A stretch of 64,000 nt of DNA from Prevotella sp. GTDB lineage: Bacteria > Bacteroidota > Bacteroidia > Bacteroidales > Bacteroidaceae. The stretch covers positions 15,203 to 79,202 of the forward strand of contig JAEEHW010000085.1 of NCBI GenBank assembly GCA_016281055.1, given 5' to 3'. The position numbers and the translations under genes are program-made. Positions 16,235 through 49,216 of the stretch are shown here, piece by piece. Numbering within the stretch: position 1 is the first letter of the stretch; each line of letters begins with the position of its first letter. The notes beneath the pieces are model-generated. The model was given only the letters and a program-made list of their open reading frames with translations. It did no database searches and was not told the origin of the DNA.

Positions 16235-19200
16235 ATGAAGAAGAACCTTTACTTTACCAATTTTAAGACGGCTGTTGCAGCCTGTAAGGAGAGAGGGCAT
16301 GATGGTTTGAATGGTTTTCCGGGGAGTTCCGCGGAAACGATTCGTCGTTTGTGGACATCCGTGGTCCTCATGATCCTTATGATGGTTGTGAGTGGCAGTG
16401 CGTTCGCAGGAGTTCATTTTTCGCAGAATTATGAAGCTGCAGGTGCTGTTCCTGATTGGACTACTAGTGTTAGTGGTCGTTTCACTCCTATCATAGTTGA
16501 GGAAGATGGTAATCATTATCTCACTGTGGATCAAGATCAGCGTGTCAATAATGGATGCATATTGTCATCTAGTAGTCTGATAGGAAAGGTTCCTGCAGAT
16601 GTAAACGAACTCACTATGACGTTCGATTTGCGTTTGGCACCATCAAATGATCAGACACCTAATGAGTTTACGATTGCTGATGGTGGCACAGGTTTCGTCC
16701 TTAAATTGGTAAACAAAGGGGTGAATTCTACCATATGGCAAATCAATGATAGTACTACACAGACTGTCACTATGGATGTAGATAAATGGTACTCTTACAA
16801 TATTGAAATATTGGAAGGGTGCGTTTTCGTTACTGTGACAGATAAATCCTCTGGTAATGTTGTCTTGGCTCGTCAAAAGGTTAAAAACATAATTGAAAAA
16901 TTTGGCCTTGGTAATATGTCATTTGTCACTAAGCGTAACAATGCTAATATTGCTATAGACAATGTGAAGGTTAGCAGTAAAGCAGTTGTGAAACAGTGGG
17001 ATTTTACTAAGTTTTCTGAAAAAAATCTTACTTTAGATACCGATAATAAAATACAATCAGGAAATGTAGCCCGTTGGAATGGAACTAATTTTAATAGGGA
17101 TTTATATCTATGTACGGATACAGAAGCGGAGGGATTGTATTTAGATGGAGATGGACCTTGGCAAATTTTATCAAATTCGACAGGATTATATCTTTCTAAA
17201 AAAGGAGATAGACCTTTTGCTATTACCGGTCTGTCAAAAGATGATGTAATCTTGATAAAGCTATATGACCAAGCGATAACAAGTGGTGTTATTCCTAAAA
17301 TTTGGGGTGTAAATAATTCTGAATTATTATTATTAAACTCTGGGTCTATATATGCATTAATAGTGGCATCTGACGGCAATGTAGCAGTCAATCTTGAAAA
17401 ATATTCCGCAGTAAAATCAATCTCTGTCCTCCGTGAGGATAAGCCTGTATTCGTTGATTTCTCCAATGGAGAAAACACAGGGGTGGCTGGCACACTTCCT
17501 GAGGGGATGGAAGTGCAAAAGGGTTTGTCATTCCTTGTACCGGTAAATACATCTATGTATAAGAGTGGTTATACACTTGCAGGATGGGATAATGGAACAG
17601 ATACCATAGCTTGTGGAGGAGAGTCTTCTGCATTGGTTGCAACAACCTATGTTTCTGTGTTTAAACAAAACGAGGTAGTTCGTACAGATTCCAAAAATCC
17701 TGTCAGCGCAAGTTTCACTGATGTTAAGTGGACAGAACCTGGTACGCAGGATTATTATGTAACACAAACAGCATTCAACGGAGAAACGCAGGATGTCGGT
17801 GCAATGGTGGATGGTAAGACTATTACACTGTTAGACATAATTCCAGGTACCAAGATTACGTTCCCAGCTGGAACGGTGGGTGATTATTCTGCCACAGATG
17901 TTACAGTAGCGGAAAATACCTGGACCTACAATGGTTCTGCCACTTCGCTTGAAATTACATATAGTGGTTCGGCGGCATCAACATCTTTAATAGTCACTTT
18001 CCCGCTTACGCAAAAGCCGGTTATCAGAACGGATATTCGTGATGTGTATGCAGCAAACCTGAATGCGGAATTACCAATCACTGTTGGTGCTATTCAGGCA
18101 GAAACCTATCAGTGGTATACTAATAGTGTATGCAGTACTGAGGGTGGAACGATTATTTCCGGAGCAAACTCCAGTACATATAATGCACCGACTACTACAA
18201 AGGGTAATGCATATTATTATTGTATGGTAGGTAATTCGGCTGGTAATGTAATTTCAAATGTTGCCCGTGTTCGTGTCGATGATTATGTGTCGTTTGACTT
18301 TACAGCGATGTCTGAAGATGATATGAACTACACCACAGATAGTATCAAGGGTTACTCTGGTGTAGTACAGACGATGAAAGATAGTATTGAGTGGGATTGT
18401 ATGCCTATCATTTCGCCATATCACATGACAGGTTATTTTGGCGTCATGACCACTGAAGTCAGCCTTCAGACGGGTAAAGGTTTCAGTAATAACAATGTTC
18501 GTGGTGACCGCACGTTGATAATGTATGGTCTCAAACAGGGTGATGTTGTTGTAATCAAGGGTAAGAGCCTGACTGGCGGACAGATTGTACAGAATGAGAA
18601 GAATGCAGACTATGGTCGTGCCAGTGTTGATAGTTTGGTAAACGCCAATGGTACGGATGTGGAGATACTCGTTACCATGAAAACAGATGGTGACTTGGCA
18701 TACCTGCTGAGACGTCAGAATATCCAGGAGATACATTCTGTGATGATGCCGAACAAGTATCGTCCTACGGTGACGACTGACCTTGATGGCGAAACACATA
18801 CCCTTGCACGTGGTGAAACACAGACTTTGACGGTAGCAGCCACTGCTGGCGACAGCAATGCGCTGACCTATCAGTGGTATCGTAGTGATGCCAATACAAT
18901 TAAGGGTGGATTGGATGTCAACTCGTTTGGCAGTCAGGCTATTGAAGGAGCGACTTCTGCTTCATATACTACAGAAGCAAACCAGTCGTACTACTATTTC
19001 TGTGTAGTATATAACAGTGTGACAGGTGCTGCAGCAGTGACACCGCACAACACTCGTATACAATGCAAGCCACAGGTTACATACGAATGTACTGACCCAG
19101 ACGTAACAGGCGTCTTGCCTCCAACAGAAATTGTTGAGATTGGTGGCCAGCATACTGTGGAACAACATAACCAGTTGTTGCATAAGGAAGGTTACACTCT

Positions 19201-22200: not shown

Positions 22201-25200
22201 ACGTGAGCAGGGCATCAACTCTGGTGAGAAGATGATGCGTGTATATAAGATTACATTCATACCTGATGCAGAAACCCCGATAATAACGCTTGACAAGTCA
22301 ACATCATCGTTCACACTCTCTACTACAGATATGAGTCTTCCTGACGATGACCCAGACAAGGAAACTATATACTACACTACGGATGGTACAAAACCAACGA
22401 GAGAAAGTTATGTATATAATGGCACACCTGTGTCTTTGGCAACTAATGTGACTATTCACGCTATTGCCATGGCAAAAGCCAAGAACAACTCTGATATGGC
22501 AGAACTCGTGACTGACATGACGACCTACAAGCTCAATGTGAACTTGTATCCGAGTGATGAGGAAGGACGTATAGAGATTTCTCCAGTATCAGAGGACGGC
22601 ACATACACCGAGAATGCCACAGTAACCGTGCGCGGCTATGCCAAGAGTGGATATGGTCTGCTTGGTTGGACAACGTCACGTGCGAATATCGGTACGCAGA
22701 CATATTGCGGCACCGGTTCCTCAATGGAAGTGACAATCAACAGTACGGCAAATGACTATTGGGCTGTATTCTCTACTGGTCCGCAGGGAACTGTAAACTA
22801 TGATTTCACTGGTGCTGTATTCTATACAGTATCAGGTGAGAACATGATAGACTATCAGGCAAGACTTGATTACGAGGATGATCCAAGTAAAACATTGGAA
22901 GAGTATAGAGCAGAATGGGCTGAGACCCTTGCTGATGCATATGAGCAAATAGAGGGTTATGACACATTTAAGTCACCTATAACCTCTACATCAATCTCTG
23001 TTCCTTCAAACTATCCATTGCATACAATGGATGGTCTTGATGGTGGTACGTTCACATTGCAGTATTGGCAGGATGCAGAGGAGAACAGGTATGACCTTGG
23101 TACGAATACGCTCTTCAAGCCAAACCAGACATCTGTTACGCTTTATCCTGTATTCAAACAGAATGAGGATACGAACTTCATGGAAGCTCGTAACTCTGGC
23201 TTCAATGTGACATGGGATTTCCGTAAGGCATACGGTGCACATCCAATGACATTGCCTTCAGGAGTGAGTGGAAGATACTACTCTACCCACGCAACGATGG
23301 ATTATTACGCTCGTGGTTCATTGCAGAAGGACAAGACAGTGGACTTGGCAATAAAGATCAATACAGAAGGTGTGGAGCAAACAGATGATGCATTCACCAA
23401 CGAGGATCTTGACGAGTGGGCAACACTCAAGCAGGGAACCAAGGTAACCATACCGTCAAGCTATGGTGCTAAGATTATCGTGGCTACATACGCCAAGATG
23501 AATGCTGATGACGGTGGTACTATGATTAACGGTAAGCACCCTGACAATATCCATGACGAGAATGTGCCTAAGACTTCTGACGGTGCATACCTCTATACAT
23601 GGACGATGGGATCCGATGATCAGGAGGTTGACCTCGTGATTGGCAATGACTATTCGTACTATAAGTATATCAATGCTGTGTTCAAGGATGCTGAGAAGGT
23701 ATATCTCAAGTATTATACAAATAATGATGAGGATGGTACAGTTACAGCTAAACTTGATGAGAACGAAGACTATGTTGCTGAGTTGACGAATTTGGGTTAC
23801 GCTTATCCAAAGGGTAGTAATGTGACACTTACTGCAACTCGAAACATTTACCATAGGTTGCTCTACTGGCTTGATGACAAGGGAGCCAAGATTTATCCTG
23901 ATGGTACGTATGAGTTGGCAAATGGCAATACAGGTACTATTAGTTCCGGAAAGGTTATCAATGGCATAACTTATAAGGGAGTCACAAATGAGACTGACAT
24001 GAAATATACTGTTAGTTTCGAGATGAATAAATTCTACGAGTTACAGGCTGTGTTTGGTGACATGACCACATACTATGTTAACTTTAGTGTTGGCGACGGT
24101 GATGGATTGGCATTGCCTCTGCAGCACATAGAGCATGGTCGTCAGTTGATTATGCCTGCATGCAACTACAACCTCTATCGTGATGGCTATACATTGAAGT
24201 ATTATGTAGAGTCTGGTCATGAGGATGGTCAGCATTATGAGTTCGGACGTTCATACAATATAGATCGTGATATGCGACTCAAGCCTGTGTTTGAGAAGAA
24301 TACAAAGTCTATTGATGATATTTCCGACGTGAATGGTGTGACTGCAACATGGGACATGAGTAAGATGGACTTTGACTTTAGCAATGCACGTGGTCACATC
24401 GTTGCTCAGTTGCCGATAGATGAAAACAACACCATCGACATGAGATGTTATGTTGAAGCTAAGAATGCAAGTTATTTTGCATACACCAATGAGGGTATTG
24501 GAGAGTTCTCTCAGGGTGCATTCCTTAAGGTGACAACAACTAAGAATAGTACAGTATCTGTTGTTGCTGCTACTGGTATGCCTTTCGAAGCCAAGCAAAT
24601 TAAAATTGGTGGTAATGAGACTGCTGCAGGTGCGACGGTAAGCTATGGTGACAATGAGAATGAAGTAAATGTGACAAGAGATTCTACCAAGATTGAGTTT
24701 GCGAAGGATTCAAGAATCAGTAGTTTCAGTGTTACATTCAGAAAAGTATCGAGTGACCTTGCATTAAAGTCTGTTACTATTGGTGGCGTTGCTCTCTCTG
24801 CCGAGGAACTGCTGGCATTGAAGAATACTCTGAACCATTCATACAGTTGTGAAGCAAGCACGGTTTATGCTGCTGATGGTGTGATGCCAGAAGTAACGGC
24901 TACAGCTAATGAAGAAGGTGGTGAGACAGCTGTGACGCAGGCAACTGTTGAAAATAATACAGCTGTTGTGCTTCTCAAGAAGGGTGGAGTGACAATCCAG
25001 ACCTATAACATTAACTTCACGCTGACAGGCAAGACCGCTCCAGTGGTTGACACCTTGAAGGTGAACGGCATTGTAGCAGAAAATGGTTCTGTAAGTACAG
25101 CACAGGGTGTCAATGGCGTGATTACATTGGTATTTGACCACGCTATGAAGACAAAAGACGTAGAGTCAGGTGCAGACGCTTTGAACCAAACACTTGACTG

Positions 25201-27591: not shown

Positions 27592-27637
27592 AAAAGCATT
27601 CATATTACGGTGTAAAATCTGTAATATGAATGCTTTT
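27592..27637 (+). terminator. hairpin terminator after paralog 1
   Basis: Perfect 17-bp stem aaaagcattcatattac / gtaatatgaatgctttt with a 12-nt loop, followed by gttatagcccttttt. The stem sequence is related to the GTAAAAGCATAG..TATTAC units of the 95-bp element. Confidence 0.7.
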
Positions 27638-27655
27638 GTTATAGCCCTTTTTGGG

Positions 27656-27841: not shown

Positions 27842-30800
27842 ATGTATTCAATAGGCAAATTGTTAAGAGTAAAAGGATTAGAAGAGAAGTATTTTTGTGT
27901 TTCAACGAAAGGGCGTGCGTATAGTATGCTCTTGTTGTCGTTGTATCTTGTTTTTGACTGTTTGGTAGCCTCAGCACAGGTTGTTCAGCCTGTTTCTCCT
28001 ATGTATGATTTCAGGAGCTGGAGCGCAACCACAATCAGTAATCTTCAGGCTGTGGCGTTGGCAAACGATGATGCGAACATTACGTCAGACACTCCGTGGT
28101 CAACATCGGAAAGTGCTACGCCAGGTGTGACATCAGAAACAAACGACGGGCATGGTTTTTATAATCATGCTGTAGTGACAGATGCGGCTCTTGCGGCTAA
28201 TGGCACGGCAGTAACTGAGGTGGCAGGACTGACGGTGAATGCTCCTTCACATGGTATTGGCATTATTAATGACATTGCTTCCACATCTCTTGGTGATTAT
28301 GCTAATAGTAGTTATTTGTGGTTGATGAATAAAACTACTTATGTTGTAATTCCAAATGTGCTATGTGGTGCAACAATAACTGTGGGCGTGGAGAGCCATA
28401 ATCCCAGTAAGGGACGTGGTGTAGAAGCATTTTACAAGGATGCCAATGGTGAATGGCAGTCAATAGGGAAATACACGAGTAAAGTATTTGCGAATAAAAC
28501 GTTTGACATACCTGTCGTACCTGGACTTACTTCAACGGAGGTGAAGTTGCAGGCCACGGACGGTATGCACCTTTATTATATTGATGCCCAGATAAACGGC
28601 ATGAAAGTGCTGACAAATTCTCTGAACCTGACAACAGGTGACACCCGTACCCTTGTTGACGGTACAGACTATGAGAACCGCAGTGGAGCAGCCATAACAT
28701 TCAGTACTGGTAACGTGGATGTTGCGACTGTTGATGCCAACGGTGTCATCACTGCTGTCGGAGTGGGAGAGACAACGATAACCCTCAGTCAGCCTGCCTC
28801 AGGTGACTACGCAGCCTCTACCCAGACCATAGCAGTATCGGTAATCAGTACCAATGTGAACCCTACGTTCACTACAAACCTGAATGCAACATATAGTGTG
28901 CTGCAGGGACGTACCGTCTGCATGAAGGTGGATATGATAGACGGTGACACCTATCAGTGGTACACCTGTACTGACATAGATGGTGAGACGGGTAAGACAG
29001 CCATCGAAAACGCAACATCCAATACATACAATATACCAGATGAGTGGCCAAACGGCGTGTACTATGTATATTGTCTTGCCACCAACAGCGAGAACGGCAA
29101 CTATACAAGGTCGAATGTCGCTACGGTTACGGTGTCGCCAATGACACATACCTTTGACTTTACGTCATTATCGGCGCAGACGCTGGCTAATATGGCAGCA
29201 GATAATGTGAACTGGACACCGTATGAGAAAGGAACCCAGACAGCAGGCGCCAATGATGACATGGGTTATTATACTGCAAATGCCATGACAGACTTCAGCC
29301 TGTTGTCGGCAAATGGGGAGAACCTGAGTGAGACATATCCTCTGTTGTTTGCCGCCAAGGGTAAGAGCCTTGCATTCGGTTTTATGTATGACATGCCGAC
29401 TGCTGCTATCAGTGGCGCAACACAGTATTACAACGGTTCAGGCATGTTATGGCTGACGTCTGGAGGAAATTCTTCCATTGTCATTCCAAACGTAAAGTGT
29501 GGTTCCATATTGAAGATTGGTCTGGAGAGTCATAAGAACTCAGACGGCCGTGGTGTGACGTTGTATTATGGTTCTAACAACAACAATACCTGGACCAAGG
29601 GAGATGCATACAAGCCGATGCTGTTTACAGAATATGAAATCACCGTTCCGGGAACTGATGAAGTTACGGATCTGAAACTGGAAGCCACCAGTGGTACCCA
29701 CATCTATTACCTTGATGTGGATATGCAGGGATTCAGGCTCCTCAGCGATACCAAGTTGATGGAACAGGGTGAGGAATATACGCTTGTGGAAAATACAGAC
29801 TATGCCAAGTTAGGCAGTGATGCAGTTGTGAAGGCTATCTCCTCAAGTGACGAAACCGTTGCCACTGTTGACGAAAACGGTAAGATTACAGCCGTTGGCA
29901 TTGGTACGGCAGTCATTAGCGTAAAGCAGGAGAAGGAAGGTGTGTATAGCGAGACTATACTCGAGCTTACGCTCAACGTAAAGAAACTTTATACAGTAAC
30001 ATACGACAAGGGAAGCGACAGTGCAGTGAAAGGCCAGGCACTTGGCGCAGTACGTTATGAAGAGAATGCCGAGATAAAACTGCCATCGCCAAACCGTCTT
30101 ATGTATAAGGACGGCTTCACCATGACAGGCTGGAGCGATGGACAGAATACATACGTCTTTGCTGATGACTATACAGTGACGCACAATGTAAATATGGTGC
30201 CGGTATTCACTGCCAACACCACAGGCAAGACATTGTCGGCACTCGCTAATGCTGAGACAGTGACATGGCAGTTCGGCCGTACCAACGGTGCACCATCAAT
30301 GGATTGGAATGCAGCTTCGGCACAGCCAGGTTACCTTGTTGCACAATGCAATGTGAATGGAGAGACACAGGATGTAACGCTGAAAATCAATACCCAGGCA
30401 GAAGGCGCAGGATTTACAAATGCAGAACGCGCAGACAAGGCCGATGCACAGGTAGGCGATCACACGGTGTTCACCATCCCTGCTGCAGAGCACATGCAGA
30501 TAACAATCAACAACGTCAGCGGTGCTGCACCGGCAGCGACCATCTCTGCAACAGGCTTGGAAGCAACAGAGATGACGTGGAATTCATCTGCCAAGACTCT
30601 TACATATACATACGACGGCAATGCTTCGGAAGTAATCATTGACGTTGCTGCTGTTGAATTCCTCGATGGCATTACGGTGAAGTATCCCCGTCCGTCAGAC
30701 TTCGCTATTGTGGAGAATGCCGGAACGCTTGACATGACAGAGAGTGAGAAGCATACACTGACAATAGATGCAGACTATGTCACATCGTCTGACGGTGCTA

Positions 30801-37590: not shown

Positions 37591-37619
37591 AATAGTACGT
37601 TGTGAATTTTCGAGATTTA

Positions 37620-37663
37620 ATCCTATTAGAAGTAATGTGACAAAGTGTTATTTCTAATGGGAT
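37620..37663 (+). terminator. hairpin plus T-run, a likely terminator downstream of paralog 2
   Basis: atcctattagaagtaa - tgtgacaaagtg - ttatttctaatgggat (14 of 16 pairs), followed by tttattgcttttt. Confidence 0.5.
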
Positions 37664-37743
37664 TTTATTGCTTTTTATAGTTAAATATTTTTAAAATATC
37701 CAAATATTCTTGTGCTTTCTTCTTCTTTTTAGCATATTTTATC

Positions 37744-37795: not shown

Positions 37796-40700
37796 ATGGA
37801 TAAACACAGGAATATTTTGCACCTTGACGTGCGCACATCAAGATTTGTCACTACTCTGTGGCTGGTACTACTCATGTTTGTAATGGGTGGTGTGAAGTCG
37901 TGGGCAACGACGATTTTCTCATTAAGTACAAGTCAGGCAACAGATCAAACAATCACTTATGGAGCTACGATAGACCCTATTGATGCGTCCAATGCCACTG
38001 TTTCGGGTGGTAGTGTTGCGGTGGTGAGCCTTCGTTCTCCTGCGGAAAATACAGATAAGTACACGTACAATGGCAATTTTTACTTTGGAACCAACAGTGT
38101 GGGTTTCAAAGTGACGCTGAATACGACCTTGTCTGCTGGTGACGTTATCGAATACACGGCAACCAATCAGTTACGTTTCACTATTGCTGGCGCAAACAGC
38201 GGTGGTGTCGTTACGACAGCGTCTTCAACATCGTACACAGTCAAATCTACGGATGAGATATGTGGACAGTCTGTCATATATATATGGAGAGCGAATGGTG
38301 CTGGCACGTCGTTCAATAATATGAGCATCACTCATGTAGAGGTGGACCATAGCAATGATTTCGAGGCTGTTGTAAATAACCAGACAGGTACGTTGCTTAC
38401 ATCAGGTGAGCAGGTACAGGGCACTGTGCTGACTTTCGGCGTTGCCAATGACGGCACGCGTGTGGCATCAAATTCCCCTTCGGCAGTTGGCGTCATATCG
38501 GGTACATATCATAGCGAACACGGAATGACAGGAATGACTGTCACCACGGACGTATTGGGACCTGTTAGGATCACTGTTGGAGCTTGTACATATAGCACTA
38601 ATGCGATAACAGTCACAAACAGTGCCAATGATGTTGTGGCTACAAAGAATCCTTTGATAAATTGTTGGAAGAATAATCGCAGTAACGTGACGGTGCTCTA
38701 TTATAATGGAGCCCCAACTACGCTTACTATCAGTGGCATGCAATTTTGCCCATATATAAAGGTAGAGGCAATAGCTGCTTCCGAGATACCTTCTACTGTC
38801 AATGTGTCCTTTGCGAAAGGAGATGCGGTAGGTAATGCCCCTGCGGCAAAAGAGGTGGGCATAGGTTCGGAATACACTCTGCCGGAGAATCGTTCTCTCT
38901 ACAAAGAGGGATATACACTCACGGGGTGGAGCGATGGGACCAACACTTATGCACCTGGTGATACATATACCCTTGGTGATGTCGATGTGGAATTCACTCC
39001 AGTGTTCACCGCCAATACAAAATCTCTTGGTGACCGTACAGCCTCTGTGTCCCTGACGTGGACGTTTGGAGAAAACAGCGGTGCACCAACTGTCTCGTGG
39101 CAGAACAAGAGTGACCAGCCGTTGGTGACTCAGGTTACAGTGTCAGGTGAAACCATAGATGTTCCATTGTGGATAAATACTGAGACAAGTGGAAGTAAGT
39201 TTGCCAATGCCAGCCGAGGTGACAAGTGGGCCCAAGTTACGAGCGGTGCCGTGCTTACCGCACCTTCGTGCAAGGGGGCAACGATAAAGATGGAAGCCTA
39301 TAGTGCGATAAGTACCACGACCATCAACGGCGGTGTTGATTATGAGTCAGGCACCGTTATTACCTCAACAGTAACTGGCGATGGCGAAACAGCCGCTGTC
39401 GTTATCGGTGACGGACAGTATTATTCATATATTAAGGTGACGTTGCCGGCATTGCTGCCAGAGTTTACTTCCAACCTCGCCAGCACATACCGTGTGCAGA
39501 CATCTGTTGACAGAATACTCAGCGTGTCAGCCGACTACGCTACGTCATACCAGTGGTACACTGCCACTGCCGCAGACAAGACGGGCGAGACTGCCATTGC
39601 TGGTGCCAATAGTGCATCATACACCTTCAACCGTGCAACTGCCGGTACATATTATATCTATTGTAAGGCCACCAATGTTGTAGGTACTGTTGCATCAAGG
39701 GTGGCTACGATTACCGTGTCTGACGTGTTGCCAACCTTCGACTTCACAGATTGGAGCAATGCGACAGTGACGAAGCTTAAGGCTGACGAAGCATGGAATA
39801 CAGCGCGTGATGCCACGGCAAGCGTGGATGCCTCACATTATAATACTGATTCCAACAACGATAGTGTCAATGACAAATACATCATGGGTGGTGCATGGAC
39901 AGACAATGTGGCTGGCGGTACGCTCATGGCGAACAATGCCGTAATACCTGAAACATTCGGCCTCGACTTTGGCGGTCCGCTGACAAATAATGCCTCTGCC
40001 ATAGTATATGACCAACAGGTGGATTACACACTTCCGCTCACTTTCAATTACCAGGGTGCGAAGTATCTGCAGCCGGGTGCCAATAAGGGATTCCTTATTC
40101 CGAATGTAAGGGTGGGCTCGACATTGCGTTTCAACATTGAGGCGCACGACTTCTCGTCTGCCAGCGGCATAAACCTGTTCTTGGGTGGAGCCGATGGCAC
40201 CAACCTCACAAACGCTACAACGGCAAATGGATGGCTGACCACCACACAAAGCACTCCGTCAATAGAACTCACAAGTGCACTCGTGGGCAACAACGATTAT
40301 GTTGACATCTATGTGCAGCCTACAGCTGTCATGCACATCTATACCATAGAGGCAGAGATGGCACTTGGTGTAACCACCAAGACCAAGACTGCCAACGTGG
40401 GAGATACCTACACCCTCACAGAGGGACGTGACTACTTCTCTGGTACAGGCGGTGGTGCCATCTCCTTTGCCAGCATGAATACAGAGATAGCCACCGTCGA
40501 TGCCACAGGCAAGATTACCGCAGTGGCTCCTGGTACGGTGAAGATTGCTGTCATCCGTGCAGCATCGGGCAACTATGCTGAGCACGCCGATACATTGGCG
40601 TTTACTGTTGATGCCCCAGTCAGCGTGACTTACGACAAAGGTGATGCAGAAGGTGCTCTGCCTCCTACAGCAATGAACATGAGTTATAACAAGGGTACGG

Positions 40701-43700
40701 TGATAACCTTGCCTGCCGGTCCGAACCTCTACCTTTATAAAGAAGGTTATACCATGCAGGGATGGACTGACGGTACAGCCGATTATGACTTCGGTGCAGA
40801 ATACACCGTGACAAGTGATGTCACTATCTATCCTAAGTTTGCTGCCAATACCAAGACTCTTGCCACACGCAGTGGCACTGCCGAGGTGCTTCTTGATTTG
40901 CAGCGCAAGAATGGTACTCCTACCTTGGCGATAGAGAACAAAGCTGGTATTCTTGTAGTGCAGTCTGATGTGGATGGTGAAACCATCGACGTAAAGATAG
41001 CTTACGACACCAGACCTGGTAAGATAGCCAACGGCAACTGGGATGATTGGTGTCAGGTCAATAACGGTACTACTTTCCAACTGCCATCGTGTGCCGGTGC
41101 AGTGCTCTCTTTTGAAACTTATAATGCGACAAAGACCACGACTATCGATGGTGAAGCAATGAGTACCAATGAGTCACAGACACCGTCTGTAAATATCACT
41201 TCCACTGCCAATCCTATTACAGTCGTCATGGGTGGCGATCTGGAATATATGCGTTGGATAAAGATCCTGCTTCCTGCAAAGCCTAAGTTTACGGTCAACC
41301 TCAGTGGTACATATCGTCTCATTCAGGGACGTTCAAAGACTCTTTCTATCGAAACAGACCAGGTAGTCAACTACCAGTGGTATCGCAATACCACAGCCTC
41401 CAACACCGGAGGTACTGTCATTGTGGGGGCAACGTCTCATGAATACGGCTTTGCCACAGATGCAGAGACAGAACCAGGTTCTTATTATTTCTATTGTGTA
41501 GCCTCAAATGCAGTAGGCGAAATAGTGTCTGGCGTGGCAACAGTCATCGTGGAGTCTGTGACAAAGAACCACACATTCGATTTCACCAACTGGTCTGAGA
41601 CATCTTTCGAGGCTCTTGCTGCCGATAATGTCAACTGGTCTGAGAAGGAGAAAGTATCAGGCAGTGGCAATGATGGCGTGGGTTACTACAATCATGTTGC
41701 AATTACGAATGCAATCCTTGCGGCTGACGGTCATGAGATTGGTGAAACATTCCCGTTGCGCTTTACTGGAGGTGCACATACATTGGGAATGATAAATGCA
41801 CTTCCAAGCACCGATATTGGTACATACGCAGGCGAACAATATCTGTGGATGTTCAAGGGAAACAGTATGGTTATCCCTAATGTTAAGATGGGTACAGACA
41901 TTACTCTTGGAATGGAGAGCCACAAAACATCTGATTTGCGTGGCTTCACCATATATTATGGTAATGCAGCCACAGACGAATGGACATCACTGGGCGACTA
42001 CAAGACAAGAACGTATATTGATACGCTTGTATCAATCCCTGATGGCGCTGGATACTGCGACGTTAAATTGTCTTGCGTGGCTCACACTCACCTATATTAT
42101 ATAGATTGTACATACAATGATTTCGCACTTCTTAAAGACGATCAGCGAATAAGTCTCGGTGATGAATACACCATTACGCGTGGTGTTGACTATGAAACCT
42201 CATCCAATGCGGCACTGACATTCGCCATAAGCGATCCTACCGTTGCTACCGTTGATGCAAGTGGCGTAATCACTACTATCAAATCAGGTTCTACAAATCT
42301 GACGATTACGCAGGCTGCCCACGACGGCATGCCAGCATTGGCACACACCATGACAATCCGTGTGGTTGCACCATCAGACCTCAATGCACTGAAGAGTGAG
42401 ATAACGATTCACGAGGGCGATACATATACCCTCACACGTCGTACAGATTATAATACATCTTCTGATGCACCTGTGACATACACCTCAAGTGACGAGGATG
42501 TCATATCTGTTTCTGCCGATGGTCTTATCACGGTCAACAGTGACGGTGATGCCACCATCGTGATACGTCAGGAAGCTAACGAACTGTATAATGCAGGCGT
42601 TACACGCATCATTGTACATGGCGTACTTGCCACAGACTATCCTACTGTAGTGTCAAACATCGGTACTGAGAAGACAATCTTCACCTACACATCTGCTAAA
42701 CTCGACTTTGTAACCACAGGTGCCACATCTTATCAGTGGTACACTTGCGATGATGAGTTTATGACCAATCCCGTCAAGATTGATGGTGAGACTTCCAGCT
42801 ATATGTTTGCGCGTCATACATCTCCAGACGACAAATACTACTATTGTATAGCAGAGAACTCAAAGGGGCGCGTCGTTTCTGACGTGTGCCACATAACGTC
42901 TGTCCGCAAGGTGCAGTGGGATTTCGTAAGCACCAGTGGTGTTAAGGAACGTGCGGAGGCTGGTTATATGTCCTCAACATCAAAGGGTAGATTGCAGTGT
43001 GATCAGGCACTTGAAGATCAGGAGATGAAACTGAACTCCAAGGAGTATGTGCCTGTAACGGAGGGCTTGTTCATCACAAGACAGGGCAATGTACTTATCG
43101 GTGACTCTACTAACGCTTCTAACAACCGTCTGCAGATGGCAAAGGGCAGCATCAGAATCCCAGGATGTCTGAAAGACGAGATTATCGTGGTGAATGCTGA
43201 ATGGGCTACGAAGAAAAAAGGATTCATCATCCCAGATACCATTGGCACGAATGTGAGATGCAGTGAAGAGGGAATGACGAAGGATTCACTGATAGGCCAG
43301 GCAATGGATTATAAGTTCGTTGTAACGGCAGACGGTTCTGTGACGCTTAACTTCATGGAGGCTGCTCTACACTCCATCACCATTCAGTCTGCTCATGCCA
43401 CTATGATGCAGACATACGATGTGAAGGCAGTGCCAAAGAATGATGAGTCTAACGTACTTAAAACCTACGTTTCTGGCGGCAAGGGCTGGACAGACTCCTT
43501 CGTCAGGGTTCCTTACAGTTACTGGCTAAAGGATGCGGATGGCAAACTATATACTTTGCGTGGCGCTAGTGATGCTCCGCTTGAGGAAACATTCTCGCTT
43601 GAGAGCGACACCACGTTCCTTATAAAGTATAACACCACTGATGTGGAGAATGTGGTATTCCTTTCTGAGGCGGAGGATATAGACGGTGCGAAAGCCTGCA

Positions 43701-46700
43701 CCAACGGTAACTCGTTCATACGTTCTTCTATGAACAAAGCTGCATACTGCGACGTGAACGGCGGACTGAAGGTTACCACGCTGCCTCCGGGTTCATACCG
43801 CATCAAGGCAGTCATCTTCGACCCTGCCAAGACACCGGCGTCTATCCATACCTTCACCATCGGTGAACAGTCAGTGAGCCTCGCAGCCACCAAGACAAAC
43901 TTCACGGAGGTGGAAAGTGAGATTGTCAACATTAACCAGCCTACAGACCTTCTCTGGATGCCTACGGATGATCAGGAGGCAGGTATCGACATCCTCTGTG
44001 TCTATGACACTCAGATGCCTACGGCAGAGACACCGACAATCACTGTTGATGACGAGAACCACACCTTCACCCTTACCACTACGGAGGAAACGGGTAAGAT
44101 GTACTATACGCTCGACGGTACTGTGCCTACACGTAACAACGGCATCCTTTATGAGGGTACGCCAGTGTTGCTGACAAGCAACTGTGTCATCAGGGCTATC
44201 ACCATTGCATCTGAGAAATTGCCGTCACAGGTGGCCATGCGTCCAACTGACTTCACCACCTACCGTCTGACGGTTCTTGCACAGCCAAAGACATACGGTT
44301 CGGTGAGCGTCAGCCCGAAGAGTCTTGACGGTTCATACATTGCAGGTTCAGAGTTGAAACTGACGGCTCGCGCCAAGGCTGGCTACGCTTTTGTTGGCTG
44401 GTCAACCACTAAGGATGGTGAGATAATCTCTACCGACCACATCAAGACCGTGACGGTGGCTGAGGCAGGTAATACCTACTATGCACACTTCGACAAGGGC
44501 GTGGCAGGATATGTTAAGTTCGACATCTTTAACGGCCGTATGCTCGATGTAGAAGGAGATTTGGTGGCAGAGTTCTCTGATGTAGCGGACGATCTCGCAG
44601 AACTTGAGGAATACGTGCACAGCTGCAGAATATTCCCAACAGACTTTGTTCAGACACACGCCATCAATATCCCGACGGCATACACCATGTTCATGGACTT
44701 AGGTGTTTCTGATCAGTATTCATTCGCTCTGCAGTACTGGCTCGACAAGGATTCGCTCGATGCAGGCAAGACCGTGCGTTATGAGCTCGGTGAGAGCCGT
44801 ATGTTTAAGGAAGAGGGTCAGCATGTAACGCTCGTTCCTGTATTCAAGGACAATGGCAACTACAACCTGCTTAGCAACCGTAAGTCCGGATGTGAAATCA
44901 TGTGGGACTTCCGCACAGGTTTTGGTGCACAATCGCTTACGCTGAAGCGCAGTGCTACGAATGTTTATTACTCCACCCATGCCGATATCATTGGCACGGG
45001 CAGCTACGGTCAGACCACCATCGATGTGCCAGTGCTGTTCCGCACCGCTGACGCTGCTGTCAACAACGATGACGAGCCAGTGATAACCAATGAGAACATC
45101 GATACATGGATGACCATGGTAGAGGGTACGGAGATTATCATACCGTCAGGCAAGGGTGCAGAGTTCACACTCGCCACCTACGCTCCTATTAATAAGGTGG
45201 GTGGTACCACGGTCAATGGTCAGGCACCTGACAACATCGACGATGAGTACATCCCACGCACAGAGGAAGGCGGCTACATATATAAGTGGACTGTGGATGA
45301 TACAGACCTGCAGGATACGCTGCGCATAGGCAACGACTATTCTTACTACCAGTATCTTACTGCCGTATTGCCTAACGCTGAGCATCAGTATCTCTCCGTA
45401 TCGTCAGCCAACACTGGTATGGGTACTGTTGTGGTGGAACCAGAGACTATTCTCACAGAGAACGGCTACGAATACACCAATGGCAGCGTAGTGACAGTAA
45501 AGGCACGCCGCAACCGTTTCTATGACCTCAGCTATTGGGAGGATGAGGACGGCTGTCGCTTCTATACCGACGGGCATTACGAAGACAAGACTGGCGCGAA
45601 CCTCGGACAGTATGATGGTCGTCGTATAGACGATGTCGTATATTCTGATCCTACTGACAGTACCATTACCGTGACACTGGGCAAGAGTCTTGCGCTGAAG
45701 GCATACTTCGTGGAGAAGCAGTCATACTATGTTGACTTCTCAGCCGGCGGTGAGGCGGAGGGCCTCCCACCATACCAACAGCATGTGGAATGGGATGAGA
45801 AGTTCGTAATGCCGTCGCGCAACCAGCAGTTGTATCTCGAGGGATACACTCTCGACTACTATACAGATGCAGATGGCAACCGCTATGACTTCGGACAGAA
45901 GTACCTCGTGACGAAGAATATCCTTCTCACTCCGCACTTCAGACTCAATGCCGTGTCTGTCTCAGACCTCGCAGAGCCAGCCACCGTCACATGGCCGCTG
46001 GCGGTAAGCGAGGGAGCAACAGAGATAGCATTCAGCAAGTCGGCTGGTATCATTGTTGACCAGCTCCACATTGGCAACGACTTCATCGATATGCCTTGCC
46101 GCATCGACGGCAACAAGGGAGCCGCTGTTAATACTACTCCGGAAGAGGGCTGCCAGGTGACCAGCGGATGTCTCATGACGATACCTGTCACCCACGGCTG
46201 TACCATTGCGTTGAGTTCAGCAAGTGGCAACCTCGTCAACACTTCCATTGCCGGTACTTCGTCGCAGAATCTCGGACGTACCACTGGACTGTATAATGTC
46301 GGCACAACGGCAAGTGTTGTATATGACGGTACCGCTACCACTGAGACAGTACAGTTCCGTGAGTCGCGCGAGTGTCTGTGGCTTAAGGTTACATATCCTG
46401 TCATTGGCACAAAGCCACAGCTCAGCACTGTTACCGTGGGCGGACTGTCACTCTCTGAGGAACAGGTGGCAGAACTCAATGCCAACGGAACACTGACCGT
46501 CACATCTACTCCTGACTATGAGGAGAATAGCGTGAGCACCGTTGCTGCTACTGCCACTAATGGCGGTACGGTGACCGTTACTCAGGCTACACCGTCAGTA
46601 CACACTGCATCGCTCATCCTCAAGGATGCCGGCGGCACGCTGGTGGCATCATACAACATCGACTTCAACTTCGTTGGAGTCACTGCTCCTGCAATCACCA

Positions 46701-49216
46701 GTGTCAAGGTGTCTGGCAAGAACGCCACTGCCGATGGCTCGACAACCGTCAGTGGGGCAGGGGTGAACGGTGTTGTCACCTTCACCTTCAACCACGCTAT
46801 GAGCGGTGTTGTGCTGCCAAGTGATAAGCACGGACTTGCTGTAACAGAAGACGGCGGCAATATCACGGGCGTGGCAACATCCAAGGAGGTATATGGCAGC
46901 AATGTCTATACGCTCAGGTTCACATACTGGGGACTGACTGCCGGCACTCATATCATGACAATTCCGGCAAATACCCTCACCGATGCCTTCGGTACTCCAT
47001 ATCCGACGGATATAACGGTGAAGTTCACCGTAGTGGAAAACAGTGTGTCGGTTAAGCGTAACTTCAACTTCATTGTGACGCACAAACAGTCATGGGATGC
47101 CAAGACGCAGACTGCCGGTGAACGTGTGCAGACCGTTCCTAATGACGTCCTTGCAAACCTCGATGCGTTGGACATCAAGTATGGCACCATCGAGGAGGCC
47201 ATCAATGCCGCCAATGCAGCAACAGGTACCGACCGCTATTACATCTTCGTTCCTGACGGAGAGTATCAGACGAAGGGTACCGACAATGATGCCCTCACAA
47301 CCAATTACGGTCCTGGTCAGAAATACTATGACACCAAGGACGGTGAGGGATTCGAGGCTTACGGCTACTACAACGGTCGCACGTTCCTTACCCGCGACAA
47401 TGTCTCCATCATCGGACAGAGCCGCGACGGTACGGTGATATTCAATGACCCGTATCTGTATGGCATATCATACTCTTCTACTATGGAGGTGCGCAATAAG
47501 GTCAAGGACAGTTACTTCCAGGATCTGACCTTCGACAACCGCTACTCTAACTTCCAAGTGGAACGTGGTGATCCTAACCCAACGGGAGCAGCTGTCGCTG
47601 TATATGACCGAGGCATACACTCCGTATGGAAGAATGTGGCAATGAAGGGTTATCAGGATACATACGTGGCAGGTTCCAGCACAAGCGGAAGCACCACGCA
47701 GCCTGGTACGTTCCACACTTATCGCTATTATGAGGACTGCCAGATCTGGGGTACTGTCGATTTCATCTGCGGTTCAGGTGACTCATGGTGGGAGCGTCCG
47801 GAAATAATGCTCCGCAAGCGCGTTACGAGCAACAACATCGTGGCGGCACGCAACTTCTACACCAATATGTCACGCAACTATGAGGGTGATGACTATATGT
47901 TCAGTGAGGACTGGGGCTTCGTATTCAACGAAGGCGTAGTGAAGGCTGAGAGCAGTACAGCGTACAGTGCACAGAATGGTAAGTACACCATTGCACGTAC
48001 ATGGGATAACTCTCCTGCCAACACATTCCTCAAGACACGTTATTACGTTATGCCGACAGCAACGGGATACAGCACGATGAACCAGAACCTGCTCTGCCGC
48101 ATGCATGAGTATGGCTCGCTCAATGCCGACGGAACACCGGCCGACCTCACCAAGCGTACGCTTCGTGCGGCTACACCGGCGGCTGGCTCTGATGACTGCA
48201 TACTTACTGCAGGGCAGGCTGCGCAATATACGTTGCATAACGTGCTTGGTGGCGACGACGCGTTCGATCCGACCATACACACTAAGCAGATATCCATGGA
48301 AAATGCCCTCATCAGAAACAATACCAGCGACAATGGTGACTGTATCATTACATGGAATCAGGTTGAGGATGCCCTCTGCTATTTCATCTTCCGTATTGAT
48401 GAGGCTACCGGCGATACGTTGTTCTTTAGCGTTTCATCGGATGCTTCGTTCAAGCCGGGTGATGCTCAGGCAGGAAGACGCTTCCTTGTTCGTGCCGCCA
48501 ATGAGCGCGGGGGACTGGGTGCTCCGTCTAATATCTTGAAATATGAGTTGCTTGATACCTACACTGTTACTGTCAAGGAGGTTGGTCCAGTATCTGGCAA
48601 GGGTTGGAGTACCGTCTGCCTGCCTGTTGATGCTACGTTCACGGAAAGCAGCGATCTTACGGTATATGCCGCTATTGCTGCAGAGAAGACCACTCTGAAG
48701 TTGAAGAAGGTGACTCCGAATGAAGGATTGAAGGCTGGACGTGGATATATCATCTATGCTACGGCACCTGCCACCTATACCTTTAAGGGTACCCACAGAA
48801 ATGCTATACCAGTATATGGTGGTCAGTATTCAGTACTCGAAGGTAATCCGGAGGATCATGCCGTCAGCGTTGGCACGCTCAATATCTATACGCTTGCATA
48901 CAAGTCAGAGATAAGTAGTGAGGTTGGCTTCTACAAGTTCGTGGGCAGTCAGATTCCGGCATACAAGGCATATCTCTCTACCGACTACCTCGCAAGTCAG
49001 GGCATTCATCTTGATGCCGGCTCCAAGGGCATAAACTTCATCTTCGACGATGAAGACTGGGATGAGGAAACCACTGATGTGCAGGGTGTCAGCGAAGACA
49101 CTGATGAAATGAAAGCAGTATATGACCTCTCAGGCAAACCTGTTGAGCGCTCACAGATGCGCAAGGGCCAGATATACATCATAAATGGTGAGAAGAAACT
49201 CTGGGAAGGTGAGTAA
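37796..49216 (+). CDS. giant modular secreted surface protein, paralog 3 (3806 aa), with a largely intact CE8 pectinesterase-like module and a T9SS-CTD-like tail
   Basis: ORF track. Signal RFVTTLWLVLLMFVMGGVKSWA. Ig-like modules are present (TSYQWY..TYYIYCKATNVVG; VNYQWY..SYYFYCVASNAVG; TSYQWY..KYYYCIAENSKG). There are three Big_2-like modules, InlB-B-repeat-like modules (LYKEGYTLTGWSDGTNTY..VEFTPVF) and a CHB_HEX_C-like module (KMYYTLDGTVPT). Confidence 0.9.
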   Translation: MDKHRNILHLDVRTSRFVTTLWLVLLMFVMGGVKSWATTIFSLSTSQATDQTITYGATIDPIDASNATVSGGSVAVVSLRSPAENTDKYTYNGNFYFGTNSVGFKVTLNTTLSAGDVIEYTATNQLRFTIAGANSGGVVTTASSTSYTVKSTDEICGQSVIYIWRANGAGTSFNNMSITHVEVDHSNDFEAVVNNQTGTLLTSGEQVQGTVLTFGVANDGTRVASNSPSAVGVISGTYHSEHGMTGMTVTTDVLGPVRITVGACTYSTNAITVTNSANDVVATKNPLINCWKNNRSNVTVLYYNGAPTTLTISGMQFCPYIKVEAIAASEIPSTVNVSFAKGDAVGNAPAAKEVGIGSEYTLPENRSLYKEGYTLTGWSDGTNTYAPGDTYTLGDVDVEFTPVFTANTKSLGDRTASVSLTWTFGENSGAPTVSWQNKSDQPLVTQVTVSGETIDVPLWINTETSGSKFANASRGDKWAQVTSGAVLTAPSCKGATIKMEAYSAISTTTINGGVDYESGTVITSTVTGDGETAAVVIGDGQYYSYIKVTLPALLPEFTSNLASTYRVQTSVDRILSVSADYATSYQWYTATAADKTGETAIAGANSASYTFNRATAGTYYIYCKATNVVGTVASRVATITVSDVLPTFDFTDWSNATVTKLKADEAWNTARDATASVDASHYNTDSNNDSVNDKYIMGGAWTDNVAGGTLMANNAVIPETFGLDFGGPLTNNASAIVYDQQVDYTLPLTFNYQGAKYLQPGANKGFLIPNVRVGSTLRFNIEAHDFSSASGINLFLGGADGTNLTNATTANGWLTTTQSTPSIELTSALVGNNDYVDIYVQPTAVMHIYTIEAEMALGVTTKTKTANVGDTYTLTEGRDYFSGTGGGAISFASMNTEIATVDATGKITAVAPGTVKIAVIRAASGNYAEHADTLAFTVDAPVSVTYDKGDAEGALPPTAMNMSYNKGTVITLPAGPNLYLYKEGYTMQGWTDGTADYDFGAEYTVTSDVTIYPKFAANTKTLATRSGTAEVLLDLQRKNGTPTLAIENKAGILVVQSDVDGETIDVKIAYDTRPGKIANGNWDDWCQVNNGTTFQLPSCAGAVLSFETYNATKTTTIDGEAMSTNESQTPSVNITSTANPITVVMGGDLEYMRWIKILLPAKPKFTVNLSGTYRLIQGRSKTLSIETDQVVNYQWYRNTTASNTGGTVIVGATSHEYGFATDAETEPGSYYFYCVASNAVGEIVSGVATVIVESVTKNHTFDFTNWSETSFEALAADNVNWSEKEKVSGSGNDGVGYYNHVAITNAILAADGHEIGETFPLRFTGGAHTLGMINALPSTDIGTYAGEQYLWMFKGNSMVIPNVKMGTDITLGMESHKTSDLRGFTIYYGNAATDEWTSLGDYKTRTYIDTLVSIPDGAGYCDVKLSCVAHTHLYYIDCTYNDFALLKDDQRISLGDEYTITRGVDYETSSNAALTFAISDPTVATVDASGVITTIKSGSTNLTITQAAHDGMPALAHTMTIRVVAPSDLNALKSEITIHEGDTYTLTRRTDYNTSSDAPVTYTSSDEDVISVSADGLITVNSDGDATIVIRQEANELYNAGVTRIIVHGVLATDYPTVVSNIGTEKTIFTYTSAKLDFVTTGATSYQWYTCDDEFMTNPVKIDGETSSYMFARHTSPDDKYYYCIAENSKGRVVSDVCHITSVRKVQWDFVSTSGVKERAEAGYMSSTSKGRLQCDQALEDQEMKLNSKEYVPVTEGLFITRQGNVLIGDSTNASNNRLQMAKGSIRIPGCLKDEIIVVNAEWATKKKGFIIPDTIGTNVRCSEEGMTKDSLIGQAMDYKFVVTADGSVTLNFMEAALHSITIQSAHATMMQTYDVKAVPKNDESNVLKTYVSGGKGWTDSFVRVPYSYWLKDADGKLYTLRGASDAPLEETFSLESDTTFLIKYNTTDVENVVFLSEAEDIDGAKACTNGNSFIRSSMNKAAYCDVNGGLKVTTLPPGSYRIKAVIFDPAKTPASIHTFTIGEQSVSLAATKTNFTEVESEIVNINQPTDLLWMPTDDQEAGIDILCVYDTQMPTAETPTITVDDENHTFTLTTTEETGKMYYTLDGTVPTRNNGILYEGTPVLLTSNCVIRAITIASEKLPSQVAMRPTDFTTYRLTVLAQPKTYGSVSVSPKSLDGSYIAGSELKLTARAKAGYAFVGWSTTKDGEIISTDHIKTVTVAEAGNTYYAHFDKGVAGYVKFDIFNGRMLDVEGDLVAEFSDVADDLAELEEYVHSCRIFPTDFVQTHAINIPTAYTMFMDLGVSDQYSFALQYWLDKDSLDAGKTVRYELGESRMFKEEGQHVTLVPVFKDNGNYNLLSNRKSGCEIMWDFRTGFGAQSLTLKRSATNVYYSTHADIIGTGSYGQTTIDVPVLFRTADAAVNNDDEPVITNENIDTWMTMVEGTEIIIPSGKGAEFTLATYAPINKVGGTTVNGQAPDNIDDEYIPRTEEGGYIYKWTVDDTDLQDTLRIGNDYSYYQYLTAVLPNAEHQYLSVSSANTGMGTVVVEPETILTENGYEYTNGSVVTVKARRNRFYDLSYWEDEDGCRFYTDGHYEDKTGANLGQYDGRRIDDVVYSDPTDSTITVTLGKSLALKAYFVEKQSYYVDFSAGGEAEGLPPYQQHVEWDEKFVMPSRNQQLYLEGYTLDYYTDADGNRYDFGQKYLVTKNILLTPHFRLNAVSVSDLAEPATVTWPLAVSEGATEIAFSKSAGIIVDQLHIGNDFIDMPCRIDGNKGAAVNTTPEEGCQVTSGCLMTIPVTHGCTIALSSASGNLVNTSIAGTSSQNLGRTTGLYNVGTTASVVYDGTATTETVQFRESRECLWLKVTYPVIGTKPQLSTVTVGGLSLSEEQVAELNANGTLTVTSTPDYEENSVSTVAATATNGGTVTVTQATPSVHTASLILKDAGGTLVASYNIDFNFVGVTAPAITSVKVSGKNATADGSTTVSGAGVNGVVTFTFNHAMSGVVLPSDKHGLAVTEDGGNITGVATSKEVYGSNVYTLRFTYWGLTAGTHIMTIPANTLTDAFGTPYPTDITVKFTVVENSVSVKRNFNFIVTHKQSWDAKTQTAGERVQTVPNDVLANLDALDIKYGTIEEAINAANAATGTDRYYIFVPDGEYQTKGTDNDALTTNYGPGQKYYDTKDGEGFEAYGYYNGRTFLTRDNVSIIGQSRDGTVIFNDPYLYGISYSSTMEVRNKVKDSYFQDLTFDNRYSNFQVERGDPNPTGAAVAVYDRGIHSVWKNVAMKGYQDTYVAGSSTSGSTTQPGTFHTYRYYEDCQIWGTVDFICGSGDSWWERPEIMLRKRVTSNNIVAARNFYTNMSRNYEGDDYMFSEDWGFVFNEGVVKAESSTAYSAQNGKYTIARTWDNSPANTFLKTRYYVMPTATGYSTMNQNLLCRMHEYGSLNADGTPADLTKRTLRAATPAAGSDDCILTAGQAAQYTLHNVLGGDDAFDPTIHTKQISMENALIRNNTSDNGDCIITWNQVEDALCYFIFRIDEATGDTLFFSVSSDASFKPGDAQAGRRFLVRAANERGGLGAPSNILKYELLDTYTVTVKEVGPVSGKGWSTVCLPVDATFTESSDLTVYAAIAAEKTTLKLKKVTPNEGLKAGRGYIIYATAPATYTFKGTHRNAIPVYGGQYSVLEGNPEDHAVSVGTLNIYTLAYKSEISSEVGFYKFVGSQIPAYKAYLSTDYLASQGIHLDAGSKGINFIFDDEDWDEETTDVQGVSEDTDEMKAVYDLSGKPVERSQMRKGQIYIINGEKKLWEGE
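47060..48300 (+). other. CE8 pectinesterase-like module, catalytic Asp pair retained, two other motifs altered
   Basis: GAAVAVYDRG (the first Gln is replaced by Ala); MKGYQDTY (about 47651-47662); WGTVDFICGS; YTIARTWDN (GRPW changed to ARTW, with Arg and Trp kept). Confidence 0.65.
49067..49213 (+). other. T9SS C-terminal sorting domain-like tail (paralog 3)
   Basis: ETTDVQGVSEDTDEMKAVYDLSGKPVERSQMRKGQIYIINGEKKLWEGE. Confidence 0.5.

Follow-up and report, generated by a model that had tools for sequence, protein, structure and literature searches.

Old tandem paralogs of giant CE8-bearing proteins in a rumen Prevotellaceae family, probable pectin-binding stalks of the cell surface

The DNA analysed here is a stretch of 64,000 nucleotides from a Prevotella sp. 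assembly (GCA_016281055.1, contig JAEEHW010000085.1, positions 15,203 to 79,202, forward strand), hereafter the window. Three giant open reading frames (ORFs), G1, G2 and G3, lie head to tail in it, and the coordinates and lengths given for them by an earlier reading of the same letters (the first-pass annotation) were reproduced exactly (Table 1). A fourth giant, G4, absent from that annotation, follows downstream of G3 on the same strand, and three genes of about 400 codons, U1 to U3, lie upstream of G1. Hydrophobic N-terminal signal segments are visible in the sequences of G1, G2 and G3 (aa 39–58 in G1). At the called starts this segment is preceded by 17–38 residues (16235–16410, 27842–27990 and 37796–37910), and N-terminal extensions of 15–70 aa are found in most family members as called, reflecting either a real extended signal region or the choice of start codon. 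The best explanation of our data, to which we would give a probability of about 0.6, is that G1–G3 are old tandem paralogs of a rumen Prevotellaceae family and serve as stalk proteins that bind and de-esterify pectin at the cell surface.

Table 1. Features of the giant-gene locus (positions are those of the window)
Feature	Position	Strand	Description	Basis
U1	11798–13030	+	secreted; signal peptide and type I dockerin	PF00404, 44.8 bits
U2	13122–14378	+	lipoprotein, lipobox	
U3	14433–15641	+	lipoprotein, lipobox	
G1	16235–27544	+	3769 aa; giant secreted paralog of the predicted catalytically dead CE8 lineage	ORF coordinates and length exact
G1 variable N-terminal half	16235–22219	+	after the signal segment, modules A-B-x-B-A-B-x-B-A; no Big_2	
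G1 colinear core	22220–27541	+	CHB_HEX_C_1 at 22310–22498; modules A at aa 2235–2426 and 2616–2787; beta-sandwich strings	
G1 CE8-like beta-helix	25691–26581	+	catalytic Asp, Asp and Arg replaced (putative pseudo-esterase)	PF01095, 43.3 bits, region alone
G1 C-terminal ~217-aa module	26891–27541	+	beta-sandwich, acidic linker, short tail	
Hairpin after G1	27592–27642	+	19 bp, T-rich tail, −24.5 kcal/mol, likely terminator; TAnnTTTG box at 27799 before G2	
G2	27842–37468	+	3208 aa; paralog with fully intact CE8 active-site motif set	ORF coordinates and length exact
G2 variable N-terminal part	27842–32350	+	modules C-B-C-A-c-B, then ~360 aa common to G3 only	
G2 CE8 pectin methylesterase domain	35633–36505	+	GQAVAV, YQDTY, VDFLCGGG, LGRPW	PF01095
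G2 C-terminal module	36812–37465	+		
Hairpin after G2	37619–37676	+	T tract; TAnnTTTG box at 37744 before G3	
G3	37796–49216	+	3806 aa; paralog keeping the CE8 Asp-Asp-Arg	ORF coordinates and length exact
G3 variable N-terminal half	37796–43978	+	unique 337-aa stretch, then modules A-B-C-A-B-C-c-B	
G3 "long conserved unknown region"	44498–47362	+	predicted beta-sandwich string with two module A copies	AF2
G3 CE8 domain	47363–48250	+	YQDTY, VDFICGSG, ARTW; first oxyanion-hole Gln replaced by Ala	
G3 C-terminal module	48560–49213	+	Fn3-like domain ahead at about 48300–48550	AF2, Foldseek, exhaustive profile search
Hairpin after G3	49299–49344	+	18 bp, −24.6 kcal/mol; TAnnTTTG box at 49588 before G4	
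G4	49735–64000 (runs past window end)	+	fourth giant ORF; >4755 aa in window, about 6,200 aa by homologues	

G1, G2 and G3 are paralogs. BLASTP joined their C-terminal parts in single alignments with E = 0, over 1828 aa for G1 and G3 (41.6% identity), 1817 aa for G1 and G2 (42.0%) and 2329 aa for G2 and G3 (46.2%). Together with a tile map, these alignments place the C-terminal colinearity, put at about 1700 aa in the first-pass annotation, at about 1,800 aa with 42–46% identity. According to the tile map and a codon-aware alignment, identity rises along this core from 24–45% at its start to 65–78% in the last ~350 aa. Identity between paralogs at four-fold degenerate sites is 0.2–0.5 throughout, the most conserved C-terminal end included, so that synonymous sites are saturated; since they are as diverged at that end as elsewhere, its high protein identity reflects purifying selection, and gene conversion as its source is ruled out.

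The suspicion that the array is an assembly artefact of a single gene does not hold. Besides the saturation of synonymous sites, the longest exact DNA word common to any two of the paralogs measures only 17–35 nt, and the exact G2 protein occurs on five contigs, two of them 0.2–1 Mb long. At the displayed G2 place, the neighbouring proteins have the exact lengths of G1 and G3 (3769 and 3806 aa); the other four places are collapsed in the record, with mostly the same neighbouring proteins. The library of representative proteins further contains probable strain alleles of the same lengths, namely P0012 (96.9% identical to G1) and P0011 (98.6% identical to G2).

A scan for relatives, made with one genome per species, yielded 13 loci, all in rumen Prevotella or Prevotellaceae metagenome-assembled genomes (MAGs) from goat, sheep, yak, red deer and cattle, and each with giant ORFs of >3,000 to >3,700 aa. 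On one contig of the Prevotella MAG RGIG1502, a G1 orthologue (50% identity, 3272 aa) is followed by a G3 orthologue (46%, 3384 aa) and then by a G4 orthologue (53% over 3271 aa); two further loci, L001 and L010, show the same tail order. In a neighbour-joining tree of the core, G1 groups with five orthologues (100% bootstrap), and G2 and G3 group with seven other sequences (95%); L003 and P0015–P0020 are named as orthologues of the G1 clade. The separation of the G1 clade from the G2/G3 clade and the gene order kept across species place the duplication that gave rise to the two clades before the split of these species. A more distant set, made up of L005–L013 and about 50 representative proteins of 2,100–7,098 aa, keeps a colinear core of ~1,600–1,800 aa at 25–35% identity. 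The Prevotella MAG RGIG6895 (L010, L007) has both an outgroup-type giant (>3700 aa, with U1–U3-like neighbours) and a separate array of G1-, G3- and G4-like genes, so that four or more giants of these families can coexist in a single genome.

Upstream of the core, the paralogs differ in the number and order of their modules, as the first-pass annotation had proposed. Iterated hidden Markov models (HMMs) built from the internal repeats define three modules. Module A (170 aa, beginning with a Listeria-Bacteroides repeat) is present in 5, 3 and 4 copies in G1, G2 and G3, respectively, two of which lie inside the conserved core of each protein; module B (106 aa, immunoglobulin (Ig)-like) in 4, 2 and 3 copies; and module C (278 aa, containing Big_2) in no copy in G1 and in two copies plus a partial one in each of G2 and G3. 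Pfam likewise finds three Big_2 domains each in G2 and G3 and none in G1. A constant colinear core combined with re-permuted N-terminal module sets bears out an expansion by tandem duplication and module shuffling. The unique N-terminal regions gave nothing above threshold with Pfam or NCBIfam. Between near-identical strain alleles, the N-terminal parts change faster than the core: 34 of the 46 differences between G2 and P0011 fall within the first 1500 aa. In G1, a patch of 55 aa (22808–22975, aa 2192–2247) is almost wholly replaced, with no insertion or deletion, relative to P0012, a protein of the same length and ~97% identity. This patch looks like a strain-level mosaic or hypervariable segment, and its source was not traced to any of the paralogs compared.

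As for the module labels proposed for the core, the CHB_HEX_C-like module is borne out in all three paralogs by Pfam (CHB_HEX_C_1/Fn3_assoc). The divergent B-repeat, claimed for all three, is matched by Flg_new_2 of Pfam in G2 and G3, G1 not being among the matches. Four of the six quoted sequence patterns occur in every paralog, exactly or with at most one residue off, while TWDFR... is confined to G1 and G2 and GTKV... to G1. The SbsA/Big_5-like label finds no Pfam match at E ≤ 0.5, and PF13205 is not found in aa 2818–3200 of G3, upstream of CE8. The AlphaFold2 (AF2) model of the 951-aa region of G3 that had been described as conserved and unknown is an all-beta string of sandwich domains (pLDDT, the per-residue confidence score, 68; alignment of 6 sequences), for which Foldseek returned only generic multi-Ig chains; on these two grounds an extra catalytic domain in this region is ruled out.

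The only solved relatives of the core are pectin methylesterases, which belong to carbohydrate esterase family 8 (CE8). The proposed CE8-like module is confirmed by PF01095, with 41.6 bits in G2 and 39.8 in G3 (cut-off 27), and with 43.3 in G1 when the region is scanned alone. G2 could be aligned residue by residue to PDB entries 8tne and 1qjv, and it keeps the motifs of all catalytic positions. In G3, the catalytic Asp of QDT, the Asp of DFxxG and the Arg of GRxW are present, and the first Gln alone is lost. G1 has the fold without the catalytic residues: EGT, WF and SPM stand in place of the catalytic motifs, and the equivalents of D199, R267 and W269 of PemA are W, S and M. In rumen pectin methylesterases, the conserved residues of the catalytic centre are described as two Asp and one Arg (PMC10530356). 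G2, G3 and 13 homologues have preserved this triad, and its retention across such deep divergence argues for retained catalysis; G2 and G3 are thus probably active esterases, de-methylating pectin at the cell surface. The G1-lineage orthologues L003_2 and L010_3 have suffered the same losses as G1. Because the catalytic residues are gone and the orthologues are equally degenerate, the G1 lineage is, as predicted from its sequence, a conserved pseudo-esterase, and G1 itself probably works as a binding protein only. In all three loci with visible context, the G1-type gene lies directly upstream of a catalytically competent paralog.

The last ~217 aa of the giants form a module of their own. When 1.84 billion representative proteins were searched with a profile of this part, 4145 of them matched at E ≤ 1e-3, of which 345 also reached E ≤ 1e-10. 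Of the 150 matches listed, nearly all have the module at or near the extreme C-terminus, and the proteins that carry it range from 66 to 7098 aa among these matches. When 56 shorter carriers were scanned, no Pfam or NCBIfam model covered the module, and the passengers ahead of it were BspA-type leucine-rich repeats (LRRs) in 21 of the 56, the remainder including DUF285, pectinesterase, CBM26 and others; such carriers go under the names "hypothetical" or "LRR protein" and come from Prevotella sp. or a Bacteroidaceae bacterium. The AF2 model of the last 357 aa (pLDDT 70) consists of an Fn3-like domain and a second beta-sandwich, followed by a disordered acidic linker and a two-strand tail; Foldseek retrieved only Fn3 domains with it. 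That one terminal module recurs behind passengers of unrelated kinds is characteristic of signals for sorting or anchoring, and the ~217-aa module most likely acts as such a signal at the outer membrane.

The first-pass annotation had seen in this C-terminus a tail like those that a type IX secretion system (T9SS) recognizes, a label that our searches do not sustain. TIGR04183, TIGR04131 and PF18962 gave no match at E ≤ 1 with the whole proteins, with their last 357 aa or with their last 100 aa, nor did T9SS sorting-domain models match any of the 56 other carriers. For type B in particular, neither TIGR04131 nor PF13585 matched and no PorP/SprF family is found among the neighbours. By these HMM tests, no type A or type B sorting domain is recognized in G1–G3. 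What defines the sorting domains of types A, B and C has been described (PMC10202324), the type A domain being a seven-strand Ig-like fold of ~70–90 aa. The sole link of the module to such domains is a motif-level resemblance of its last ~15 residues. The tail of G4 homologues (RIYPSGKRIVVEST...GVYVVEQKKMLLK) matches TIGR04183 below threshold (E = 0.012–0.016; 15 bits, against a cut-off of 23). Homology of the G1–G3 module with the C-terminus of G4 was considered and rejected: hmmsearch found none, and hhalign aligned only the last 15 aa of the module with the G4-homologue tail, at a probability of 24%. A search of the window revealed no T9SS core genes.

The neighbours of the array are themselves conserved. 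G4 has no BLASTP similarity to G1–G3, no Pfam or NCBIfam family above threshold and no sequence relative in the PDB. It runs off the window, and its total length is put at ~6,200 aa because homologues from metagenomes (L014–L020) continue for ~1,450 aa further. A G4-like gene is the conserved downstream neighbour in L001, L002 and L010. On the other side, homologues of U1, U2 and U3 lie directly downstream of related giants in seven other MAG loci, which makes this a conserved neighbourhood. The dockerin of U1 is unusual for a Prevotella-like genome. U2 and U3, in which acidic residues follow the lipobox Cys, match no Pfam or NCBIfam family, and an alignment of the two extends no further than the signal peptide and the first ~70 residues. 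For an ORF of 96 aa between U3 and G1 (15712–16002, + strand), no homologue turned up in the loci retrieved.

Each giant gene is likely to be transcribed separately, since the intergenic regions hold hairpins and TAnnTTTG boxes. The hairpins behind G1, G2 and G3 have stems of 18–19 bp and energies of −19 to −24.6 kcal/mol, and they start 48–151 nt past the stop codon. The box, which we take to be the Bacteroidetes −7 consensus, has a density of only 0.31 per kb on this strand of the window. The G3–G4 intergenic region also contains AT-rich tandem repeats (49254–49512), 22 nt x 3 and then 7 nt x 21, the latter also readable as 21 nt x 6 or 35 nt x 4.4. Just upstream of G1 there is a 13-nt repeat of the ACAAAC type (16090–16177), and the 5′ end of that gene (16001–18000) has a G+C content of 0.385, as compared with 0.42–0.52 in the rest of the giants and 0.45–0.54 in the upstream housekeeping genes. 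Further upstream, a riboflavin biosynthesis cluster (5821–9574, + strand) comprises ribD, ribE, ribBA and an ORF of 153 aa at the place expected for ribH. The Rfam scan of the window found no flavin mononucleotide riboswitch at this cluster, and Rfam and tRNA scans of the whole window returned no family and no tRNA.

How the giants might work can be pictured as follows. An N-terminal Sec signal would start each protein on its way out to the cell surface. There, the conserved C-terminal ~1,800 aa, with their beta-sandwich strings, the CE8 beta-helix, the Fn3-like domain and the terminal ~217-aa module, would be the cell-proximal part, and the variable N-terminal 1,500–2,000 aa would form a distal stalk, built from Ig-like, B-repeat and Big_2 modules in permuted order, which probably binds plant cell-wall material. 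Labour would be divided among the paralogs, G2 and G3 de-methylating pectin at the surface and G1 only binding it. In this scheme, the place of the giants at the surface, the end by which they are anchored, their substrate pectin and their route of secretion are inferred; the paralogy, the age of the duplication, the synteny, the domain content, the state of the catalytic motifs and the C-terminal position and wide reuse of the module are results of the analysis. Several observations weigh against it. About 85% of each giant protein is without an assigned function, and the AF2 models are of moderate confidence (pLDDT 68–70, alignments of 6–8 sequences). The failure of type A and type B sorting-domain models to match either G1–G3 or the 56 other carriers counts here as well, as does the tail past the acidic linker, which is only ~30–35 aa long with two predicted strands (AF2, pLDDT 61–68). 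No SusC/D or other pectin-utilization genes are found in the window. Lastly, the first oxyanion-hole Gln is missing in G3 and in the outgroup giants, so that their activity may be reduced or altered.

Other explanations of the array have to be weighed against pectin-binding and de-esterifying stalks. The giants might be non-enzymatic adhesins, or tip or accessory subunits of a fimbria-like structure built from U2 and U3 (type V pilin-like), with the CE8 fold serving as a carbohydrate-binding module in all three. Such an arrangement would have a precedent in Mfa5, the tip protein of P. gingivalis, a T9SS-dependent fimbrial accessory protein. It would also agree with the recurrence of U1–U3 homologues beside related giants in seven loci, with the lipoprotein signal peptides of U2 and U3, with the loss of catalysis already seen in G1 and with a weak match of the U2 profile to PDB entry 4k4k, a Bacteroides "putative cell adhesion protein" (E = 0.0074). 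Yet no fimbrillin family of Pfam or NCBIfam matches U1–U3 at E ≤ 1, the similarity between U2 and U3 ends after their first ~70 residues, and the triad maintained in G2, G3 and 13 homologues speaks for catalysis; we therefore regard a fimbrial role as unlikely. The dockerin of U1 suggests another possibility, in which the giants are scaffoldin-like platforms whose divergent cohesins dock U1 and other dockerin proteins into a cellulosome-like pectin-processing complex. U1-like dockerin proteins do adjoin related giants in other MAGs, and the giants offer many unassigned beta-sandwich modules of ~100–170 aa. However, Pfam detects no Cohesin (PF00963) in any giant, the top Foldseek matches for the two regions modelled include no cohesin structure, and organisms that make no cellulosomes commonly have dockerin-like domains that lack partners, all of which renders this possibility very improbable.

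The head-to-tail genes, the shuffled N-terminal modules and the single 55-aa mosaic patch that separates two strain alleles of G1 could also be taken as marks of a recent, rapidly diversifying contingency family, close to the variable surface adhesins or enzymes under diversifying pressure of which the first-pass annotation had spoken, or of the assembly artefact already dismissed. A recent origin is refuted by the same saturated synonymous sites and short shared words, by the separate orthologous clades in other species, by the gene order kept there and by the conservation of the dead copy; the occurrence of exact G2 on five contigs, with neighbours of exact G1 and G3 lengths at the displayed place, is equally at odds with an artefact. 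The array is a stable, sub-functionalized gene set rather than a contingency-type array of variable adhesins: the duplication is old, and synteny with other genomes is maintained. It is tempting to speculate further that the terminal module represents an undescribed, Prevotellaceae-specific class of outer-membrane sorting or anchoring signal, be it a fourth T9SS type or part of another pathway, and that the locus builds a dedicated surface apparatus for pectin adhesion and de-esterification. The parts of this apparatus would be CE8 giants, two or three in number and one of them an obligate pseudo-esterase, the partner giant of ~6,200 aa, the dockerin protein and the two surface lipoproteins. 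This proposal is tentative, and we hold it to be possible rather than probable.

None of the ingredients, be it giant modular surface proteins, CE8 enzymes or tandem paralogs, is new in kind. The G1–G3 family shares with the CE8 pectin methylesterases, such as PemA of Dickeya dadantii (PDB 1qjv/2nsp) and Pme8A, PmeC2 and the multidomain PmeC5 of rumen Butyrivibrio, the right-handed beta-helix, recognized by both PF01095 and PDB matches. Further points in common are the QAVA, QDT, DFxxG and GRPW motifs kept by G2, secretion and the rumen habitat. Rumen bacteria have been found before to possess pectin methylesterases of several domains (PMC7807696, PMC12109409). In one survey the largest exceeded 2,100 aa and belonged to Butyrivibrio, and 24% and 19% of the pectin methylesterase sequences matched a Prevotella enzyme of 324–330 aa (PMC7807696). 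In contrast, CE8 makes up <10% of the 3,200–3,800-aa proteins described here (relatives reach 7,098 aa), the G1 lineage appears catalytically dead, and the window provides no context of a polysaccharide utilization locus.

A second likeness is to the giant T9SS cargo adhesins of Bacteroidota, SprB and RemA of Flavobacterium johnsoniae and GhpA of Aureispira. These, too, are beta-sandwich chains of several thousand residues that begin with a signal peptide and end in a conserved region, and the last ~15 residues of G1–G3 (KG-x-YI-x-NG-x-K) resemble the terminal strands of type A domains. The differences are that G1–G3 fail the type A and type B models, that their tail is too short for a seven-strand Ig-like domain, that there is no adjacent PorP/SprF gene, that an enzyme domain is present and that a link to motility is not expected in Prevotella. 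BspA-type LRR surface proteins of Prevotella and other Bacteroidales carry the same un-annotated C-terminal module of ~200 aa, with the common pattern W-x-T-x-x-L-P ... G-F-Y-K ... A-N-K-A-Y-L, a linker and I-Y-D-L-x-G-R-x-V ... K-G-I-Y-I-V-N-G-K-K; they differ in being 5–10 times smaller and in their passenger, LRR_5 instead of CE8 and Ig-like strings. Long strings of surface-displayed beta-sandwich modules are also typical of Gram-positive scaffoldins and giant modular adhesins, of which the 7,651-aa Ig-repeat adhesin of Mobiluncus is an example (PMC10619420), and a dockerin protein is encoded next door to G1–G3. Here, however, the host is Gram-negative, no cohesin, SLH or LPXTG is found, and the repeats are few and diverged (25–45% identity) rather than near-identical tandem copies.

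Literature searches on giant Prevotella proteins returned nothing specific. In the literature searched, neither the family of 3,000–7,000-aa CE8-bearing proteins of rumen Prevotellaceae nor its conserved putative pseudo-esterase lineage appears to have been described, and the same seems to apply to the fixed partnership of CE8 giants with an unrelated giant of ~6,200 aa and three small proteins, and to the un-annotated C-terminal module.

The four giant genes fill 47 kb or more of a single locus in an arrangement that is conserved across species, which implies that a function with a high cost is under selection where cell and plant meet. In the rumen, pectin methylesterases are carried and expressed predominantly by Prevotella, and the methanol released from pectin feeds methylotrophic methanogens (PMC7807696). 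CE8 surface proteins of 3,000–7,000 aa have so far stood outside this pectin-methanol picture of rumen methane. The conserved paralog with a predicted dead CE8 domain offers a clean natural case of an enzyme turned into a probable binding protein. Finally, the terminal module, common to thousands of Prevotella proteins including those of the BspA-type LRR group, provides a concrete candidate for a sorting signal.

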